From a virus (lineage: Duplodnaviria > Heunggongvirae > Uroviricota > Caudoviricetes): a stretch of DNA of 46,137 nucleotides. Positions 1-16,335 of the stretch are shown here, one piece after another (positions within the stretch are counted from its first letter, which is position 1; each line of letters begins with the position of its first letter). The DNA is taken from IMG/VR virus record IMGVR_UViG_644736364_000003; one strand, written 5' to 3'. The notes below the pieces were generated by a model that saw only the letters and a program-made list of their open reading frames with translations, ran no database searches and was not told where the DNA came from. The translations under genes were made by a program, and so were the position numbers.

Positions 1-1164
1 TTACGCCTTCTTTATATCCTCCATAATTCCACAGTGGGACATATTTGGGACATTATCACCAAAAATGTCGTCTATTTTCCTTGCATGCTCTGTCAAATGA
101 TTAGGCGCAAGGTGAGCATACCTACGAACCATTTCTATGGACTCCCATCCGCCCATTTCCTGAAGCACAGATAATGGGACGCCTGACTGGATCAGCCAGC
201 TTGCCCAGGTGTGTCTGAGGTCATGGAAACGGAAATCTTCAATTCCTGCACGACGACAAGCTGATAGCCATGATGTCTTGCTGTCGATGCGCATCTTCCT
301 GACCGCAGGCGTTGATGTTCCATCTGCTCGCTTAGCCGCCTTGGTATGTACAAACACCCATTTGTGATGCTTGCCTATTTGATCACGCAACACTTTACAG
401 GCGGTATCGTTCAGCGCCACACCAATGGCGCGGTTTGATTTGCTCTCTTCTGGATTCACCCAGGCAACTCGTCGCTGCATGTCGATTTGTTGCCATTCCA
501 GATTTATGATGTTCGACTTTCTCAGACCAGTTGCCAGCGCAAACTTGACGACAGATTTCAGTGGTTCGGGGCACTCATCAATAAGGCGTTTTGCTTCCTC
601 CTTTTCCAGCCATCTGACTCGCTTGTTTCTGACCGCTGGTATCTTGATGACAGGCGCTTTTTCCAGCCACTTCCAGTCGCGTTCTGCAGCACGGAGAATG
701 GCCTTTATCATGGCAAGATGCTTTGCCTTTGTCTGAGTTGATACTGGCTTTGGTTCATAAACAGGCGGTTCTTTACCTTTCCTGATGGCGGCCTGAACTT
801 TCTGTTTCCATATTTCTTTCGTCTTTCTGTTATGCATTCTGCTTACAGCAGAGTAAATCTTTGCCTCCGAGATATCTTTAAGCCTTATACCCTCAAAATG
901 TTCAAGCCAGAACTCAATCCGGCTTTTATCTGAATCGAGAGATTTTTTATCAGCTTTTTCCTCAAGCCATCTTAGGCAGGCCTCTTCAAAAGTGACATCA
1001 GGTAAATCCCCTAGCTTTTCTACTCGCCAGAGTTCTGCTTTTCGCTTGTCGTGCAACTCCTGAGCTTGCCGCTTGTCCTTTGTGCCAAGAGATTCCTTAA
1101 TTCGTTTCCCGCCCGGGAGCGAATACGAGGCATACCATATTTCATTTCTGCGGAAGAGTGACAT
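1..1164 (-). CDS. int: Tyrosine site-specific integrase (lambda/P22 family)
   Basis: 387 aa; C-terminal catalytic region [11 protein letters not shown]...[19 protein letters not shown] typical of phage tyrosine recombinases; N-terminus resembles P22-type Int as recalled. Confidence 0.9.
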
Positions 1165-2712: not shown

Positions 2713-3537
2713 TCAGGCGGTGAAAGTACCAATAAAGGTTTCTACTTTGCTGTCCTTGAATTTCTCAACAAGCAGATCACGAAATTCGTTAGCCATTTCC
2801 TCCTGCACTGCTTCCAGCTGAATAATGCGCAGAACCAGTACAGGACGATCGCCAGTGAGAATGCTGAGGCGTAATTTAAACGGACGTTCTTTCAGGCCTT
2901 CAAACGGAACGCATTTAAATTCAAATGCCACTGGCATAATGTCTTTGGTTTTCGCTTCGACAGACTCCATCAGGGAGCGTTTGCCGCTGAAGTCATTGTC
3001 TTCAAAATCAGCGGTCTGGTTTGCTTCAATCGTGATTTTACGGACTGCCGCAGCTGCTTTTGTTGCCTGAATAGCGTCACCATTAGCATCAAAGCCCACA
3101 AGGTAGTCGGCCCAGTCTTCAATCCATTCTGCCAGTGACTTCTGGGAGTTACGCTCGCCATTAACAGACAACAGAGCAGAGAACGGTGCTGTCTTTTTCA
3201 GTTTGAGAGTGGCGGTGTTATCTGCGTGACCTGGTTCATCAATAGTACCCAGATTAAGCACACTGACAGCACGCATATTATCAGCATCGATAAAGCAGCG
3301 GGTGCCTTCATCTGCAAGATCTTTAGAATAACGGGTAAAGTCATCGATGCTGGCAGTGGAAAGCGCACCACGGAAACGGAAGCGATTTAAATTAAATTTT
3401 TCCAGATCATGAATGCGGAAATTCTCAGGCAATGCCACAGCATCGGCACCAATCTTACTGATAATTTCATTAACACCCTGAGCAGAAATAAGGGCATGGA
3501 TTTGATTAATTGCGGTTGCGTCTAAGTTCTGAGACAT
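2713..3537 (-). CDS. yfdQ: YfdQ-like phage protein (DUF2303 family)
   Basis: 274 aa ORF with GAGGA RBS; length and position match the CPS-53 yfdQ homologue as recalled. Confidence 0.5.
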
Positions 3538-3602
3538 AATAAGTCCTCACTATATAAAGATATTCAGTGATGAGATAAATAATCAGTTTATTAAAAACGA
3601 TA

Positions 3603-3965
3603 TTAACGACCAGCTGCGCGGAGTTTTCCGTCAGGTTCACCGGCAAGAGTCAGTAATTGTCCCTGGTCTTCCTGCAGAATAGTCAGGCGACCACCGCGAT
3701 TGACATACATCGGCGTTTCGGTGGTGTCTTCTTCGGAAATTTTCCCGCGGTTAGTTGGGCGAACATATGAGAGTTTGTGTTTGATTTTCACACGGTTCTC
3801 ATCAAACGGTTCGATTTCCAGATTGAGTGAGACCTTCCCTTTGGTTTTCGTGTTCATCACACCGGAAGCGACTTCACTTAGAACTGCGCCGATTTTTGTT
3901 TCAAATACGCCGCCGTCCAGCTCCCCGATAAATGCCTGCACATCAGTACTGCGTTCACTAGCCAT
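3603..3965 (-). CDS. Hypothetical early protein (YfdP-like); first gene of leftward operon
   Basis: 120 aa from internal Met MASERSTDVQ with AGGAG RBS; the longer track ORF 3603..4151 lacks an RBS at its start. Confidence 0.5.
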   Translation of the reverse strand: MASERSTDVQAFIGELDGGVFETKIGAVLSEVASGVMNTKTKGKVSLNLEIEPFDENRVKIKHKLSYVRPTNRGKISEEDTTETPMYVNRGGRLTILQEDQGQLLTLAGEPDGKLRAAGR

Positions 3966-4611
3966 TTTGCTGCTCCTCATCATATCGACCCTGCAATGTC
4001 GGTTAGTTTCTCCACAAAACAGAGAAGAACACCTGCGGTGGTAGCCGCCCGGATGGATTGGGTTATGAGCCCGTCGTCCGATGATGTTCTTCTCTGTTTT
4101 GTAAAAAGAGCGGTACCAGCCGGAAGCAAGTGTACAAACTGGTACCGCCAAAGCAGTGGCTGTTGTGGTGACCGGTGCTGATCTCCGGCTTGCGGTTATT
4201 TCAGACTCTCACGGGCATTTAATTGCCCCGCCGAACAGCTCTTTTCCGCAATAGCTGCAATGTCTTTCGCGCATCAGCCTGCGCATTCACCACAACGCTG
4301 AGAGCACTTAGCCAGTTACGGCACCACACTTTGTCGCGGTTCCATAAATGCCCTCATCGTTGCACCCTGGTCTCTTCCCAGGCGTCAAACCGAATCGCCA
4401 CGCTGGTTAGGCGTCTTATCAGCATCCTCATTGACTTGCACATTCCGGCTATCTGGTTTGTTTGCCCGAGCAAGGAGTGGATTGTCCCCTTTAACGTCCC
4501 CAGACCGCTAACGACGCATGTGCCATACGCCGTGTTACAACCAAATTTTGTTAGTACCTTGTTTGTAGGTCTGGAGAGAAAGATAAAATGAAGTTGCGCA
4601 TTATGCAAGTG

Positions 4612-4634
4612 TTTTATTGCGAGATAAGCAATTT
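4612..4634. promoter_or_regulatory. Putative left operator (OL-like) repressor-binding site
   Basis: Motif TTTATTGCGAGATAAGCAAT nearly identical to a motif in the cI-cro intergenic region. Confidence 0.35.
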
Positions 4635-4687
4635 GGTGGGTAATGAAAAGCCACCTTCTGGTGGCTAATTGATGTTGAGGTAGGGGG

Positions 4688-5380
4688 TTAATTGTGTCGC
4701 TTAAGGGTCTGTGACTGACTGATTAAGACCTTTCCAAAGACCATAAACCGGTGTTCGTTTTCGCTGGTAATTCCCCATTCGCGGTAAATCTGATTATCAG
4801 AAATTACCAGCAGTTTATCAGGTATCATTTGCAGTCGTTTGACGTAAATTTTATCATCAAAACCAAATACATATATACCATCCCCATCAAACTGATTGAT
4901 ACTGATATCAACGAAGATGAGATCTCCTGGCTCAATGGTTGGACACATACTGTCCCCACGAACGTTGATAACTTTAATGTGATTTGCTGGTCGTCCACCA
5001 AACATCGATACAGCATTATCAGTTCTGTATTCAATGGCATGAATCACATCAATGACATCACCGCCCTGGATAAGGCCATTTCCCGCACTGGCACTGACAT
5101 CCAGCATTTCAATACGGAATACATCCTTCACCTGCGTAACATCCTCACTAATACTGTTTTTACATACAGTATTACTTTTGAGGTCTGAGGTAAAGAGATC
5201 AGCAATATCAACACCTAAGCTCCTGGCAATATTACTCAGGGCTTGTTCAGTGAATTGTTTCTGCTTACCTGTTTCGAGGCGCGAGATATTCGCCGCATCC
5301 ACTCCTATTGCTTCAGCGAGATCGGCGATTTTCATGTTCTTCGCCTGGCGAAGTTGTCTGACTCGATTTCCTATGTTCAT
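4688..5380 (-). CDS. cI: Prophage repressor, HTH-XRE plus S24 (LexA-like) peptidase domain
   Basis: 230 aa; N-terminal HTH (IADLAEAIGVDAANISRLETG), Ala-Gly cleavage site (ASAGNG), GDSM serine motif and downstream Lys (YVKRL). Confidence 0.85.
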   Translation of the reverse strand: MNIGNRVRQLRQAKNMKIADLAEAIGVDAANISRLETGKQKQFTEQALSNIARSLGVDIADLFTSDLKSNTVCKNSISEDVTQVKDVFRIEMLDVSASAGNGLIQGGDVIDVIHAIEYRTDNAVSMFGGRPANHIKVINVRGDSMCPTIEPGDLIFVDISINQFDGDGIYVFGFDDKIYVKRLQMIPDKLLVISDNQIYREWGITSENEHRFMVFGKVLISQSQTLKRHN

Positions 5381-5394
5381 GCGTTTATTACATT

Positions 5395-5450
5395 TCTTTA
5401 TTGCGCGTTAAGCAAATCAACTTGCGCAAAATATTTGCGTGAAATAATAT
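5395..5450. promoter_or_regulatory. Putative right operator/promoter region (OR; divergent cI and cro promoters)
   Basis: Repeated TTGCG/CGCAA inverted-repeat motifs (TTTATTGCGCGTTAAGCAAAT; CGCAAAATATTTGCG) in the 97-bp cI-cro spacer. Confidence 0.4.
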
Positions 5451-5477
5451 GCTCATCACGCAATATGTGGAGGTTAT

Positions 5478-5738
5478 ATGCAATCACCATTACGGAATGT
5501 GCGTAAGGCGCACGGATTTACTTTGCAGCATGTTGCTGCGGGCGTTCAGGTCAATCCAGCGACGCTGAGTCGTATTGAAAGACTGGAACAAATTCCATCT
5601 ATCGATCTTGCAGAACGTCTGGCCAATTTTTTTAAGGGTGAAATCAGCGAAATGCAGATTCTTTATCCGGCACGTTTTCAATCTAGCCAAAACCAGAATG
5701 GGTTTAAACCACAGGAACAGGAGGTAAGCCGTGGGTAA
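5478..5738 (+). CDS. cro: Cro-like HTH regulator
   Basis: 86 aa; HTH (FTLQHVAAGVQVNPATLSRIE); GGAGG RBS; divergent from cI. Confidence 0.7.
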   Translation: MQSPLRNVRKAHGFTLQHVAAGVQVNPATLSRIERLEQIPSIDLAERLANFFKGEISEMQILYPARFQSSQNQNGFKPQEQEVSRG

Positions 5739-6288
5739 GCATCATTGGAAAGTGGAAAAACAACCTGAGTGGTACGTGAAAGCTGTCAGAAAAACTATCG
5801 CGGCATTGCCTGGGGGTTACGCTGAAGCTGCTGACTGGCTGGATGTAACAGAGAACGCTTTATTCAACCGCCTTCGTGCAGATGGCGATCAGATTTTCCC
5901 GCTGGGATGGGCAATGGTTTTACAGCGCGCGGCTGGCACTCACTACATTGCGGATGCTGTCGCACAATCTGCTGGTGGGGTGTTCGTATCGCTTCCTGAA
6001 ATTGAGGAAGTAGAGAACGCCGATATAAACCAGCGCCTGCTGGAAGTCATCGAACAGATCGGGAATTACTCAAGGCAGATTCGTTCGGCAATCGAAGATG
6101 GGGTCGTGGAGCCACACGAGCAGACAGCAATTAATGATGAGTTGTATCTGTCAATTTCGAAGCTCCAGGAGCATGCAGCACTGGTCTACAAAATCTTTTG
6201 CGCTCCAGAAAAGAGTGACGCCCGCGAGTGTGCAGCTCCGGGCGTCGTGGCGTCGATTGCTTCTGGTTGTGGAGAAACTAACGCATGA
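5731..6288 (+). CDS. CII-like / YdaT-family regulatory protein (putative)
   Basis: 185 aa, GTG start after AGGAGG; position immediately after cro; family assignment from memory only. Confidence 0.4.
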   Translation: MGKHHWKVEKQPEWYVKAVRKTIAALPGGYAEAADWLDVTENALFNRLRADGDQIFPLGWAMVLQRAAGTHYIADAVAQSAGGVFVSLPEIEEVENADINQRLLEVIEQIGNYSRQIRSAIEDGVVEPHEQTAINDELYLSISKLQEHAALVYKIFCAPEKSDARECAAPGVVASIASGCGETNA

Positions 6289-6613
6289 ACAGTTTAACGG
6301 CAAATAACCGTTTGTCGCAACAGCTGGTGGTCAGCGTCGCTGAACACCTGTTGTTACGGCATGAATGCAGATTACCAAATCACCTGGCTGTAAGTAACCA
6401 CAGAGAACTTTACCTGACTGTGGGGGGCGAGTTGTGCAGGAACTTAACCGCTGGTTTCGTGACGGAAGAGGACTTTATGTTCATGTTATTCGTTGGGAGC
6501 CAGAAACACAGCGCGTTATCTATCTTCGCAAAGACTACCAGCATGAGTGCTTTAGTCCTTTGTGGAAATTCAGGCGTGATTTTGTTGAGTGTGAAGGACC
6601 ACCAGCACATTGA
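6285..6613 (+). pseudogene. Small gene apparently frameshifted at a G6 homopolymer (about 6422-6427); intact form would be about 110 aa
   Basis: ATG overlaps upstream stop (ATGA coupling); frame 0 open to 6430, then a protein-like ORF continues in the mod-2 frame (VVQELNRWFRDGRGLYVHVIRWEPETQRVIYLRKDYQHECFSPLWKFRRDFVECEGPPAH) to a stop near 6613. Confidence 0.3.
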
Positions 6614-6721
6614 TTCTGCCATTCCGGGACGTTACACTGTTCAGGCACCTTATAAAGCGGGTGTCGGGATTGGCGTCCTGGAATTGCATACGGCGACAAT
6701 TGGCGCGTTAGCGTCTTTTTT
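6610..6721 (+). promoter_or_regulatory. Leader element copy 1: sigma70-like promoter (TTGATT-17-TACACT) followed by intrinsic terminator hairpin (GGCGC-GTTA-GCGTC-T6); candidate short RNA/attenuator
   Basis: Promoter-like hexamers with 17-nt spacer; hairpin plus T-tract about 75 nt downstream; same architecture conserved in copy 2. Confidence 0.35.
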
Positions 6722-6887
6722 GTTGCTACAACTCAGCTATACCCAAATTATGGTGGGCTGGGTGGGGGCACCGAAAGGTGCGCCGGTTTCCGTATGCGCC
6801 GGTTACGCCAACCCTGCTCAGTTCACCACCAGCGAAATTGGCGTTTCCGGTGGTGGAAGTTATCCATTGCATACGGAGGCTGCCATC

Positions 6888-7433
6888 ATGGCTACGATCC
6901 CAACCCTCACTCAACCTGAAATTGCCATCGTTGATGGTCAGGCTGTTACTTCATCCCTGGCTGTTGCCAACTTCTTCTCCAAACGTCATGACGATGTACT
7001 GAAAAAGATCCGCACGCTTGAATGTTCCGCATCATTCACTGCCCGCAATTTTTCGGTGAGTGATTACACCGATTGCACAGGCCGCAAACTACCTTGCTAT
7101 CAAATAACCCGCGACGGCTTTGCGTTTCTTGCTATGGGTTTCACGGGTAAACGTGCTGCCCAGTTCAAAGAGGCATACATCAATGCCTTTAACCAGATGG
7201 AGAAACAGCTTTCAAAGCCCGCTGTACCGAGCGACGTTGCACATAACGCCAGCGTTCTCTATTCCTACATTTCATCAATTCATCAGGTCTGGCTGCAGCA
7301 GCTTTATCCTATGTTGGCAAAAGCCGAATCTCCGCTGGCTGTTAGCTTGTATGACTATATTAATGATGCTTCGGCGCTGGCCTGCCTCATAAATTTGTCG
7401 CTGAATCCTTCAGAGGTAAGGGGGCGTAAATGA
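6888..7433 (+). CDS. Rha-like phage regulatory protein, copy 1
   Basis: 181 aa from MATIPTL with GGAGG RBS; N-terminal motif (VDGQAVTSSLAVANFF...ITRDGFAFLAMGFTGKRAAQFKEAYINAFNQME) typical of Rha/pRha family. Confidence 0.7.
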   Translation: MATIPTLTQPEIAIVDGQAVTSSLAVANFFSKRHDDVLKKIRTLECSASFTARNFSVSDYTDCTGRKLPCYQITRDGFAFLAMGFTGKRAAQFKEAYINAFNQMEKQLSKPAVPSDVAHNASVLYSYISSIHQVWLQQLYPMLAKAESPLAVSLYDYINDASALACLINLSLNPSEVRGRK

Positions 7434-7475
7434 TCCGGAATATTTTCAAACTGTTTACCAATCGCCACCAGCATA

Positions 7476-7587
7476 TTGATTCTGCAATTCCGGGACGTTA
7501 CACTGTTCAGGCACCTTATAAAGCGGGTGCCGGGATTGGCGTCCTGAAATTCGCACATGCGCATAACCGCGCTTCAGCGGTTTTTTT
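7476..7587 (+). promoter_or_regulatory. Leader element copy 2: promoter-like TTGATT-17-TACACT plus terminator hairpin (ACCGC-GCTTCA-GCGGT-T7)
   Basis: Same arrangement as copy 1; terminator stem differs in sequence but keeps pairing (compensatory changes). Confidence 0.35.
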
Positions 7588-7750
7588 GCGCACGTTTCCT
7601 CACATCCAAATTATGGTGGGGCGTGCAGGGGCATCGAAAGATGCGCCGGGGTCATGTGCGACCGGTTACGCCAACCCTGTACGTCTCACCACCTCTGTGA
7701 TTGGCGTCCCATGTGGTGAGTTTTCAAAATTCGCACATGAGGATGTCACT

Positions 7751-8296
7751 ATGGCAACCACCCCTACCCAAACTCACCCTAAAATTGATGTTATCCATGG
7801 GAAGGCTGTTACCTCTTCTTTGGCCGTTGCCGAATATTTCTGCAAGCAGCACAAAAACGTTATTCAAAAAATCCAGACGCTTGAGTGCTCTGTTGAATTC
7901 ACTGAGCTGAATTTTCAGCCCAGTGATTACACCGATTGCACAGGCCGCAAACTCCCTTGTTACCAAATCACCCGCGACGGTTTTGCGTTTCTTGCCATGG
8001 GCTTCACGGGGAAACGTGCTGCCCGGTTCAAAGAGGCATACATCAATGCCTTTAACCAGATGGAGAAACAGCTTTCAAATCCCTCTGTACTGAGCGACGT
8101 TGCACATAACGCCAGCGTTCTCTATTCCTACATTTCATCAATTCATCAGGTCTGGCTGCAGCAGCTTTATCCTATGTTGGCAAAAGCCGAATCTCCGCTG
8201 GCTGTTAGCTTGTATGACTATATTAATGATGCTTCGGCGCTGGCCTGCCTCATAAATTTGTCGCTGAATCCTTCAGAGGTAAGGGGGCGTAAATGA
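7751..8296 (+). CDS. Rha-like phage regulatory protein, copy 2
   Basis: 181 aa from MATTPTQ; paralogue of copy 1 with near-identical C-terminal half. Confidence 0.7.
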   Translation: MATTPTQTHPKIDVIHGKAVTSSLAVAEYFCKQHKNVIQKIQTLECSVEFTELNFQPSDYTDCTGRKLPCYQITRDGFAFLAMGFTGKRAARFKEAYINAFNQMEKQLSNPSVLSDVAHNASVLYSYISSIHQVWLQQLYPMLAKAESPLAVSLYDYINDASALACLINLSLNPSEVRGRK

Positions 8297-15594: not shown

Positions 15595-15670
15595 GGCCCT
15601 TTAGCTCAGTGGTGAGAGCGAGCGATTCATAATCGCCAGGTCGCTGGTTCAAATCCAGCAAGGGCCACCA
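15595..15670 (+). tRNA. ileZ: tRNA with CAU anticodon (Ile2 lysidine-type, or Met)
   Basis: Cloverleaf folds by hand: acceptor GGCCCTT/AAGGGCC, D-arm GCTC..GAGC, anticodon loop TTCATAA, T-loop GGTTCAAATCC, 3' CCA; resembles ileX. Confidence 0.8.
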
Positions 15671-15677
15671 TCACATA

Positions 15678-15754
15678 CCGCCATTAGCTCATCAGGATAG
15701 AGCGCCAGCCTTCGAAGCTGGTTGCGCGGGGTTCGAGTCCTCGATGGCGGTCCA
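15678..15754 (+). tRNA. tRNA-Arg (anticodon UCG)
   Basis: Acceptor CCGCCAT/ATGGCGG, anticodon stem CCAGC/GCTGG with loop CTTCGAA, T-loop GGTTCGAGTCC, CCA end. Confidence 0.8.
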
Positions 15755-15767
15755 TTATCTGTACCCT

Positions 15768-15844
15768 GCGTTATTAGCTCAGCCGGACAGAGCAATTGCC
15801 TTCTAAGCAATCGGTCACTGGTTCGAATCCAGTACAACGCGCCA
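15768..15844 (+). tRNA. tRNA-Arg (anticodon UCU)
   Basis: Acceptor GCGTTAT/ACAACGC (one A-C mismatch), anticodon stem ATTGC/GCAAT loop CTTCTAA, T-loop GGTTCGAATCC, CCA end. Confidence 0.8.
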
Positions 15845-15854
15845 GACTTATTTT

Positions 15855-15886
15855 TCCCGGCTCGCTTTTGCGGGCTTTTTTTTAAA
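15855..15886 (+). terminator. Possible terminator after tRNA cluster
   Basis: Short GC hairpin (CTCGC-tttt-GCGGG) followed by CTTTTTTTTT. Confidence 0.4.
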
Positions 15887-16335
15887 TGTCTCACAATTCA
15901 GACGGTTGACAGTTGTCTGTTTTGCGGGGAGTTTGTTAAAAGAAACTGGCATGGTGAATCCCCCTGTGCGGAGGGGCAATCAGCAACTGGTGTTTTGTCA
16001 CCGACCCTTATCCTTTCTGTGCGGGTTCAGGTGCTGATACTGAACTCACCGGGAGGCACCCGGCATCATGTGCATGATGATACAGATACGCGGCTTTAGC
16101 CCCTCTCCGGAGGGGCTTTCTTGTGGGCAAAAAAAGCCCGAGTGGGTTCGGGCAACAGCATGAGATATACATTTTTATAATCGAATGGATTTTAACCAGA
16201 ATTCATAAGGCTGCGCAACTGCGCGGTCTTTTTCGAATTGCGGGCTGTCGTCTCTCTTCTGCCATTGTCCTGTAACTTCCGGACTTCAGCCCGCTCCTTA
16301 TTTTACTCACAATATTATCCCGGCCGGGAGGATTC

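Follow-up and report, generated by a model that had tools for sequence, protein, structure and literature searches.

Structured RNA modules in the early leftward leader of an N-less lambdoid prophage

The early leftward leader of phage lambda, which extends from the promoter PL to the first leftward gene, is a long structured RNA that carries N and the nutL site with its boxA and boxB elements. In HK022, a lambdoid phage without N, the early leftward leader instead has a structured RNA, put, close to the promoter and a terminator after it. The put RNA is compact, consisting of two stems within about 70 nt of highly conserved sequence (PMC9378689). Lambdoid prophages also encode small RNAs (sRNAs), among them STnc100 and PasD, both reported to be Hfq-associated and of unknown function (PMC13192938), and DicF, which arises from an untranslated part of an immunity-region operon (the dicB operon of the Qin prophage) and ends at an intrinsic terminator. 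I consider here the interval 3966-4687, henceforth the gap, of a stretch of 46,137 nt of caudoviricete DNA (IMG/VR record IMGVR_UViG_644736364_000003, henceforth the window), which by its open reading frames (ORFs) and Pfam matches carries a lambdoid prophage end. The gap separates the gene of a cI-type repressor from the first leftward gene, a relative of yfdP, and is thus placed as the lambda leader is; it resembles that leader also in being long and structured, but the window has no N protein, boxA or boxB. What it has is a chain of RNA modules, two of which recur far beyond the lambdoid phages.

The gap is very probably a non-coding, structured RNA. Coding was assessed by the codon position of variable columns, using 85 blastn alignments to related loci. 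The variable columns of the YfdP-like gene are distributed 34/29/87 by codon position (p=1e-9) and those of YfdQ 116/85/221 (p=2e-16), while the ORFs of the gap and the six frames of 3966-4560 show no codon periodicity (p>0.6), and columns with indels are frequent across the gap. The two ORFs named in the initial annotation are present (4354..4608 on the minus strand, 84 aa from a TTG start, and 4223..4591 on the plus strand, 122 aa), and its judgement that neither is a convincing N-like gene is borne out: no gap ORF matches Pfam, and six N-like ORFs from related loci (two share the ending ...GKSIPLI with lambda N, and two the ending ...SLTAR with P22 gp24) found no N homologue when compared by tblastn with the 46 kb window (best E=0.55). 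The same results, along with the missing coding signature, speak against the very small N analogue that had been offered as one way out. PHROGs places only families of unknown function over the gap, on both strands of the same DNA, which fits ORF calls over conserved non-coding sequence, and NCBI PGAP annotates nothing there in most of the complete E. coli genomes among the matches listed.

Annotated coding sequences (CDSs) and families do lie over the modules A, B and T1 described below: ymfH of the e14 prophage of E. coli K-12 (locus L322, 2502-2813), plp of P1 (locus L004, 3346-3723), mEp460_036 and mEp460_037, phrog_3651 and phrog_33599. The plp CDS overlaps tRNA-Thr and has a non-ATG start codon. 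All of these are probably mis-annotated stretches of structured-RNA DNA, since the homologous sequence of the window (on which the test was made, rather than on the ymfH and plp records) has no codon periodicity.

Folding and covariance, two of the checks named in the initial annotation, agree that the leader is dominated by RNA structure. The fold z-score is -6.45 for the minus strand, along which PL transcribes, and -3.70 for the plus strand, and compensatory changes accompany the helices. The minus strand is the RNA strand, because G.U pairs that are invariant or frequent in modules B and C become A.C mismatches on the opposite strand.

The initial annotation described 3966-4687 as lying between the operator OL and the first leftward gene. 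Its coordinates stand, but the interval does not begin after OL: both OL/PL and the terminator of the repressor gene are inside it, and for this reason the leader proper is only about 610 nt long (roughly 4573-3966, untranslated, minus strand). The OR operator carries palindromes of the same type as the two of OL. A -35 element of PL would fall within the second OL palindrome (4608-4594) and transcription would begin near 4573, to judge from the hexamer TATCTT; a scan for consensus promoters did not pick up this -10 candidate, and one related locus (L172) has the palindrome and TATCTT in the same order. From there the leader runs through modules C, H1 and B, the terminator T1 and module A (also H2) to the ribosome-binding site of the first gene (Table 1), and C, H1, B and A are each supported by covariation or by pairings kept among homologues.

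Module B carries much of the argument. It is a four-way junction in which a closing helix (P1, in the family (U)GUGGUG/CACCAC(A), 7 bp and extended in some copies) is followed by the connector AAU, a hairpin (P2), an insert of 6-178 nt (median about 65), the dinucleotide AA, and a second hairpin (P4, GCCGG-AGAUCAGCA-CCGGC in the family) set directly against the 3' strand of P1. Pattern scans with either conserved end found B in at least 120 IMG/VR contigs, and a structural filter that demanded pairing in P2, P4 and the core of P1 left 98 distinct scaffolds in 125 distinct contexts. The filter made no demand on the pairing between the loops of P2 and P4, which is nonetheless complete in 93 of the 98 scaffolds, with four doubly compensated variants (GAUGA:UCAUC, GUCGA:UCGAC, GCUUA:UAAGC and ACUGA:UCAGU); none of 1000 shuffles reached the observed total. 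When 23 sequences were aligned by MAFFT and scored in pseudoknot notation, 99.6% of the cells were paired and six pairs had changed on both sides, a result matched by none of 500 shuffles, and slid controls were 25-55% paired. P2 and P4 show several pair types per position (GC/AU/CG and CG/UA/AU). Because copies were gathered with exact patterns, the conserved ends of the modules are subject to bias. A 25-mer of B occurs without change in 51 species-representative genomes, which span Gamma-, Beta- and Alphaproteobacteria and include a metagenome-assembled genome of Geobacteraceae; also among them are many Enterobacterales, Aeromonas, Janthinobacterium, Massilia, Undibacterium, Lysobacterales, Moraxellaceae and Martelella. 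An intrinsic terminator stands within 120 nt downstream of B, by a strict rule, in 33 of the 125 contexts. I considered a riboswitch, that is, B as aptamer with the terminator as its expression platform, and rejected it: the terminators vary both in their sequence and in their distance from B, with no overlap with P1, and the downstream genes share no function.

The sRNA RydB of E. coli K-12 (NC_000913.3, 1764713-1764780; locus L323, 2214-2281) contains GCCGGAGAUAAGCGCCGG, nearly the P4 of B in its UAAGC loop variant, and has CUUAUC at its 5' end, which is able to pair with the P4-like loop of the same RNA, but it lacks the P2 arm. The Rfam rydB model finds only the P4 hairpin of B in the window (13.7 bits, E=2), and the B model gives rydB 12 bits. 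By its sequence RydB may be a degenerate relative of B or a chance likeness.

Module C, some 180 nt with at least four helices, is also widely spread. Its 18-mer GUAGCCGGAAUGUGCAAG has matches in at least 120 IMG/VR contigs (the window copy has A at the first position), and at least 16 contigs carry C and B together. An alignment of 33 diverse copies shows compensatory changes in four helices, Ca, Cb, Cd and Ce; one pair of Ca is GC in 18 copies, AU in 15 and broken in none, and there are invariant U.G pairs. Cd is a 4-bp stem under the loop YUCACCA and Ce a 5-bp stem under GAAGAGA. Outside lambdoid leaders, P1 has a copy of C between trnI and ban, and Uetakeviruses have one in a gap between structural genes, upstream of tRNA-Arg.

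Between C and B stands H1, a cassette whose long helix encloses a payload. Sixty cassettes of the H1 type were found in the fetched loci, with unrelated and variable payloads, and the H helices fall into three sequence variants joined by compensatory changes. The GUUG at 4293-4296 is both the end of the 3' strand of H1 and the start of P1 of B, so that these 4 nt, common to the two helices, pair either with CAAC 4362-4359 (H1) or with CAAC 4165-4162 (the end of P1). The Ce loop (4366-4383) shares AAGAG with the 5' strands of the H helices, and could by its sequence compete for their CUCUU 3' strands (4293-4308 and 4016-4033) in an alternative pairing.

Module A lies beyond T1, is built on a helix of the H kind and is predicted to fold with -42 kcal/mol. 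Its homologues are found in SfV-like phages, in e14 (where it is annotated as the CDS ymfH) and in P1. The first of its arms, some 95 nt before the start codon of the first leftward gene, ends in GGGCUCAUAACCC, the core of the anticodon arm of E. coli initiator tRNA (tRNA-fMet). The GGG/CCC stem and the loop of 7 nt are kept in e14, in P1 and in two IMG/VR copies (L208 and L060), and the triplet that reads CAU in the window is AAU in e14.

These modules have come together as a mosaic. A prophage of E. coli CEA212U (NZ_CP166707.1, at about 575.6 kb) has the entire gap with 100% identity, 2915 of 5426 complete E. coli genomes have some part of the gap, and its relatives over the whole length (mEp460, phiSTEC1575-Stx2k, Stx2a and Stx2c phages, cdtI) are SfV-like lambdoids. 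By blastn against GenBank phages, sub-segments recur in unrelated phages: 4290-4546 in phiV10-like Uetakeviruses beside tRNA-Arg, in the trnI-ban interval of P1 and P7, and in mEp390 as part of its PL leader; some 40 nt of core sequence (4263-4310) in Ackermannviridae, N4-like and T1-like phages and phages of Klebsiella, Erwinia and Edwardsiella; and 3966-4150 in SfV, SfIV and e14. Rfam 15, at E<=10, has no family for these sub-segments or for module C, the weak match of rydB to P4 aside. A search of the literature by exact sequence found none of the gap sequences; a catalogue of about 10,000 candidate viral RNAs (PMC10690425) was not part of that comparison. Short blastn matches and a label "tRNA-Arg" had suggested tRNA genes within the gap, but ARAGORN and Rfam find none, and the matches are to module B.

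The terminator T1, 13 nt after B, is predicted to form 13 pairs (-21.2 kcal/mol). It is homologous to a DicF-like terminator in the K-12 prophage e14, whose leader has the order ymfK repressor, PL, ymfJ, a variant of B, terminator, module A and xisE, and this copy connects the leader to two known sRNAs. By cmscan, the e14 copy matches STnc100 over the full length of the model (29.2 bits, E=1.8e-4, under the gathering score of 47), and its terminator matches DicF (28.5 bits, E=3.7e-4). T1 and its e14 homologue have UUUGGCGGUA(C/U)CAGUUU in common with DicF, but the stem of T1 is longer, and 4085-4330 of the window has no match to DicF at E<=10 (RF00039, gathering threshold 48 bits). The consensus of STnc100 in Rfam has a helix P1 (GcaUGGUG/CACCAugC), then AAU and a first hairpin of 5 bp, a middle part made of hairpins, a second 5-bp hairpin that adjoins the 3' strand of P1, a spacer of about 30 nt and a terminator; B with T1 has the same series, namely P1, AAU, P2, a middle domain, P4, P1', spacer and terminator. 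The two are alike also in the closing helix xUGGUG/CACCAx, in a total length of about 200 nt and in being encoded by lambdoid prophages. They differ in the sequences of hairpins and loops, in the kissing pair GCUGA:UCAGC and the insert of 6-178 nt of B, in the spread of B far outside enterobacterial prophages, and in its place within a PL leader with no promoter of its own. A covariance model of B (R2), built without the window copy, gives the window B 37.1 and 26.4 bits, the match being split by the 79-nt insert, and gives the e14 variant 22.5 bits (E=1.4e-3). The window also contains a bona fide STnc100 (RF02076) at 15920-16128, with 131.7 bits, right after a tRNA cluster. As judged from sequence, B with T1 is like STnc100 in architecture and linked to it through e14, and is not a member of RF02076 as defined.

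B may be likened to tRNA as well, and its geometry, as modelled, appears tRNA-like. As in tRNA and in the tRNA-like domain of tmRNA, a 7-bp closing helix and a 5-bp hairpin would form a coaxial stack of 12 bp, a D-like arm follows after a connector of 2-3 nt, and the loops of the side arms are in contact; as in tmRNA, a large insertion (the hypervariable domain of 6-178 nt) occupies the position of the anticodon arm. The likeness extends to genomic position. In Uetakeviruses a true tRNA-Arg comes after the H 3' strand that elsewhere precedes B, the first G of this tRNA being in register with the first G of B, and a tRNA gene on the same strand lies within 300 nt of B in 18 of the 125 contexts. 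Unlike tRNA, B lacks the consensus nucleotides of T-loop and D-loop, its loop contact is of the Watson-Crick type, and its closing helix continues with no free CCA; A-N-CCA follows in only 16 of 125 copies.

The initial annotation supposed that the operon may rely on RNA-based antitermination, perhaps of the put type of HK022. A structured leader and a terminator (T1) do precede the first gene, but no element of the put or nut type was found. A search of the leader for the canonical boxA (CGCUCUUA / UGCUCUUUAACAA) together with boxB gave no nut site, as there is no boxA match within 2 mismatches. Two apparent boxA sequences were rejected. One, CGCUCUUUUUA at 4112-4102, is the 3' half of T1 with its U-tract and is not conserved in e14 (CGCCCUUUUUA) or in locus L026. 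The other, AGUGCUCU(U/C)..CGUUG just 5' of B, resembles the boxA of rrn operons (UGCUCUUU) and is the 3' strand of H1, with compensatory variants in its upstream partner strand (C)AAC.GAGCAUU. For put, RNAs were collected from GenBank (including those of HK022, HK75, O276, HK639, phiEt88 and CobraSix) and IMG/VR, and 17 of them, sharing the conserved two-stem sequence ...CGAACGGCGCG...AAACCAUGCGUCGG...GGCGGGUUCAGGAUGAACGGCAAUG..., were aligned to make a covariance model (R1), which was run with filters off. It gives putL of HK022 102.5 bits and finds nothing at E<=10 in 3966-4687; its best hit anywhere in the window has 11.8 bits and is inside a coding region. Likewise, blastn with putL has no match in the leader, and its hits are confined to about a dozen put phages, which do not include the window type. 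Ca (4511-4533) and stem I of putL (locus L324, 3737-3812) do have in common a CGGCG/CGUCG stem and the string CAUGCGUCG-NN-AGCG, 13 of 15 nt, which is no evidence of membership in the put family given the negative covariance model.

The occurrence of B and C in other phages bears on the same question. In lambda-type phages B has a boxA/boxB site on one side and a true N gene on the other, and it sits within the complementary flanks GCUUUGGGGU and ACCACCAAAGC, which in lambda form the stem of the N leader cut by RNase III, an analogy for the processing proposed below. C in other lambdoids is followed by canonical GCUCUUUAACAA boxA sites. Since both coexist with boxA/boxB and N, they are add-on modules and not substitutes for N; and C, which precedes boxA sites and occurs in other contexts besides, is tied neither to N-less phages nor to terminators.

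I therefore prefer to regard the leader as a segment in which non-coding RNAs are produced and processed and in which T1 acts as an attenuator, not as an antitermination device, and give this scheme as a whole a probability of about 0.45. On loss of the repressor, PL would transcribe the leader, its dense structure making it resistant to Rho. Most polymerases would halt at T1, yielding an STnc100-like C-H1-B RNA, which host nucleases for stable RNA would trim, RNase III acting in the H1 and H2 helices and an RNase P-type cut being made at the 5' end of B; from such sites, discrete and stable C and B RNAs would be released. Only readthrough of T1 would reach yfdP, yfdQ, xis and int, which would thus be attenuated, and a cut in H2 would fix where their mRNA begins, just upstream of the ribosome-binding site of yfdP. 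The candidate roles of the released RNAs are those of a base-pairing sRNA, a tRNA mimic or decoy, and an unrecognised antiterminator.

Several points count against this scheme or its parts. The PL start, termination at T1, processing by nucleases and the function of released RNAs are all read from sequence. If T1 is efficient, xis and int need a readthrough route, and none was found; C or B may have an antitermination role that has gone unrecognised. The homology to STnc100 rests on a single intermediate, e14, since B with T1 of the window has no STnc100 match at E<=10 (in 3400-5600 or 4085-4330) and R2 meets the STnc100 of the window in the right register with a score, 12.7 bits (E=0.39), that is not significant. 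As to tRNA likeness, about 85% of B copies (125 contexts) have no tRNA gene within 300 nt, and ARAGORN and the Rfam tRNA model find no tRNA in B or the leader, ARAGORN reporting tRNAs only at 15595-15844. For P2, P4 and the P1 core, finally, the evidence is confined to the diversity of pair types, because the filter required pairing there.

Of the alternatives, a small protein hidden in the gap, whether an N analogue or some other micro-ORF, is the least credible. ORFs do exist on both strands, CDSs have been annotated here (mEp460_036, mEp460_037, ymfH of e14 and the PHROG families), and an ATG ORF of 25 codons, MRRLMRERH..., begins within P2 of B. Yet no frame has a codon-position bias, indels are common, there is similarity neither to Pfam domains nor to N, and the annotated CDSs are on opposite strands of the same DNA. 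The ORF in B is rejected on the same grounds and two more: the compensatory change of GCGCA to GCACA in P2 makes non-conservative replacements (R to H, R to C), and GGUGA is directly against the AUG, with zero spacer. It is only slightly less improbable that conservation is a matter of DNA alone, the gap being recombination or mosaic-junction sequence, or decayed tRNA genes, with no function as RNA. The cassette-like spread over unrelated phages and the adjoining tRNA genes would suit such an origin, but it leaves unexplained the compensatory changes in helices and in the loop-loop contact, the G.U asymmetry that singles out one strand, and a paired scaffold under strong constraint around an insert that varies freely.

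That the leader RNA modifies RNA polymerase so that it passes T1 and later terminators, C being the candidate element, I consider improbable, though less so than either of these. C begins about 30-40 nt past the putative start of PL with T1 further downstream, locus L172 has C directly after the promoter, Ca and stem I of putL share a stem and a string, and neither N, nut nor any other antiterminator was found to do the work. On the other side are the silence of the put model, run at full sensitivity, and of putL in blastn; the occurrence of C away from promoters, after tRNA-Ile in P1 and in the structural-gene gap of Uetakeviruses; and its position upstream of canonical boxA in other lambdoids. 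Somewhat more plausible, though still unlikely, is that B and A act as tRNA mimics, not by base pairing but as decoys for host enzymes or defences directed at tRNA, or as substrates that compete for them; the candidate targets are RNase P, modification enzymes, anticodon nucleases and toxins of the VapC type. After the H helix B stands where a tRNA would, in the same register, and has the stack, connector and D-like arm already described; its 25-mer is exact across proteobacterial classes, which suggests a universal partner, protein or RNA; the arm of A matches that of tRNA-fMet with a stem kept in its homologues; and B sits within tRNA regions of virulent Ackermannviridae, N4-like and T1-like phages. 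Against mimicry stand the missing T-loop and D-loop consensus, the negative ARAGORN result, the AAU of e14 in place of CAU, and the domain of B at the anticodon position, which is hypervariable and has no anticodon-like loop.

Table 1. Features of the gap and of neighbouring genes in the window. Coordinates on the minus strand are given 5' to 3' for RNA elements; genes are given as ranges.
Feature	Position	Strand	Sequence or remark
Integrase gene	1..1164	-	
HD-domain YfdR-like gene	between integrase and YfdQ		
YfdQ/DUF2303 gene	2713..3537	-	
YfdP-like gene	3603..3965	-	first leftward gene, 120 aa; phrog_204, unknown function
Shine-Dalgarno and start of YfdP-like gene	ATG 3965-3963	-	GAGGAG, then ATG
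Small hairpin	4003-3984	-	5' of the YfdP-like gene start
Gap	3966..4687		interval under study
Module A (H2)	4100-4016	-	AAAACAGAGAAGAACAUC / GGUGUUCUUCUCUGUUUU, about 20 continuous bp closing a three-way junction
A, first arm	4073-4059	-	ends in CGGGCUCAUAACCC; three G-C pairs, loop CUCAUAA
A, second arm		-	GCGG-CUACCA-CCGC
T1, intrinsic terminator	4148-4103	-	GCGGUACCAG...CUGGUACCGC + UCUUUUU
Module B	4296-4162	-	four-way junction, tRNA-shaped
B, P1	4296-4287 / 4170-4162	-	GUUGUGGUG(A)/CACCACAAC
B, connector J		-	AAU, between P1 and P2
B, P2	4284-4269	-	GCGCA-GGCUGA-UGCGC
B, variable insert		-	79 nt
B, P4	4189-4171	-	GCCGG-AGAUCAGCA-CCGGU
B, kissing pair			L2 GCUGA with L4 UCAGC, 5 bp
H1, long-range helix cassette	4362-4293	-	38-nt payload
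H1, 5' strand	4362-4347	-	CAACGAUGAGGGCAUU
H1, 3' strand	4308-4293	-	AGUGCUCUCAGCGUUG
Module C	4546-4363	-	multi-helix RNA, about 180 nt
C, hairpin Ca	4533-4511	-	
C, invariant 18-mer		-	(A/G)UAGCCGGAAUGUGCAAG
C, hairpin Cd	4414-4400	-	loop CUAACCA (family YUCACCA)
C, hairpin Ce	4383-4366	-	loop GAAGAGA
PL, putative -10 hexamer	4585-4580	-	TATCTT, read from sequence
OL, two 15-bp palindromes	4631-4617; 4608-4594		TTGCTTATCTCGCAA; TTGCATAATGCGCAA
Intrinsic terminator of repressor gene	4666-4642	-	AGCCACC-AGAA-GGUGGCU + UUUUCAUU
cI-type repressor gene	4688..5380	-	HTH and S24 peptidase domains
cro	5478..5738	+	
CP76/cII-like gene	rightward of cro		

Two other regions of the window contain known RNAs. 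On the plus strand, 6645-6833 and 7511-7696 are tandem copies of isrK with C4 antisense RNA (Rfam, above the gathering scores), inside adjacent and partly duplicated ORFs resembling Rha and antirepressors (6285..7433 and 7430..8296); the pair looks like a duplicated isrK-C4-antirepressor immunity module. Further on, 15595-16183 comprises a cluster of tRNA-Met, tRNA-Arg and tRNA-Arg, a terminator, the STnc100 mentioned above and a convergent AsxR, an arrangement that Stx phages typically show downstream of Q/PR'. There STnc100 follows tRNAs, as module B does in other phages.

Some part of this leader is present in about half of the complete E. coli genomes, either left blank or covered by doubtful CDSs (ymfH, plp and the PHROG families), and their annotations may be corrected accordingly: the region is a chain of RNA modules supported by covariation. 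For the N-less group to which the window belongs (SfV, mEp460, cdtI, Stx2c phages and e14), a terminator stands before the first leftward gene together with none of the known antitermination devices, which turns the expression of xis and int after induction into a concrete and testable question. In kind, the leader belongs with small RNAs such as STnc100 and DicF that come from prophage leaders and "morons", with a genuine possibility of B and C standing for a broader class not yet described. The sRNAs of the STnc100/PasD type gain a much wider structural context. The scaffold of B is very widespread, with a 25-nt core that E. coli phages share without change with prophages of Janthinobacterium, Martelella and a Geobacteraceae genome, and it matched no family in Rfam.

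Going further, I offer tentatively, as something short of a likely account, the thought that B, C and the H cassettes make up an uncatalogued phage RNA system, widespread in Proteobacteria and travelling with tRNA genes. In such a system B would be a tRNA-shaped scaffold with exchangeable cargo at the position of the anticodon arm, and Watson-Crick kissing loops would stand in for the contact between D-loop and T-loop. If that is true, STnc100 and PasD would form a single enterobacterial branch within a larger class, and the scaffold would engage a universal host machine for tRNA-shaped RNAs, either to release or stabilise its cargo or to decoy defences directed at tRNA.

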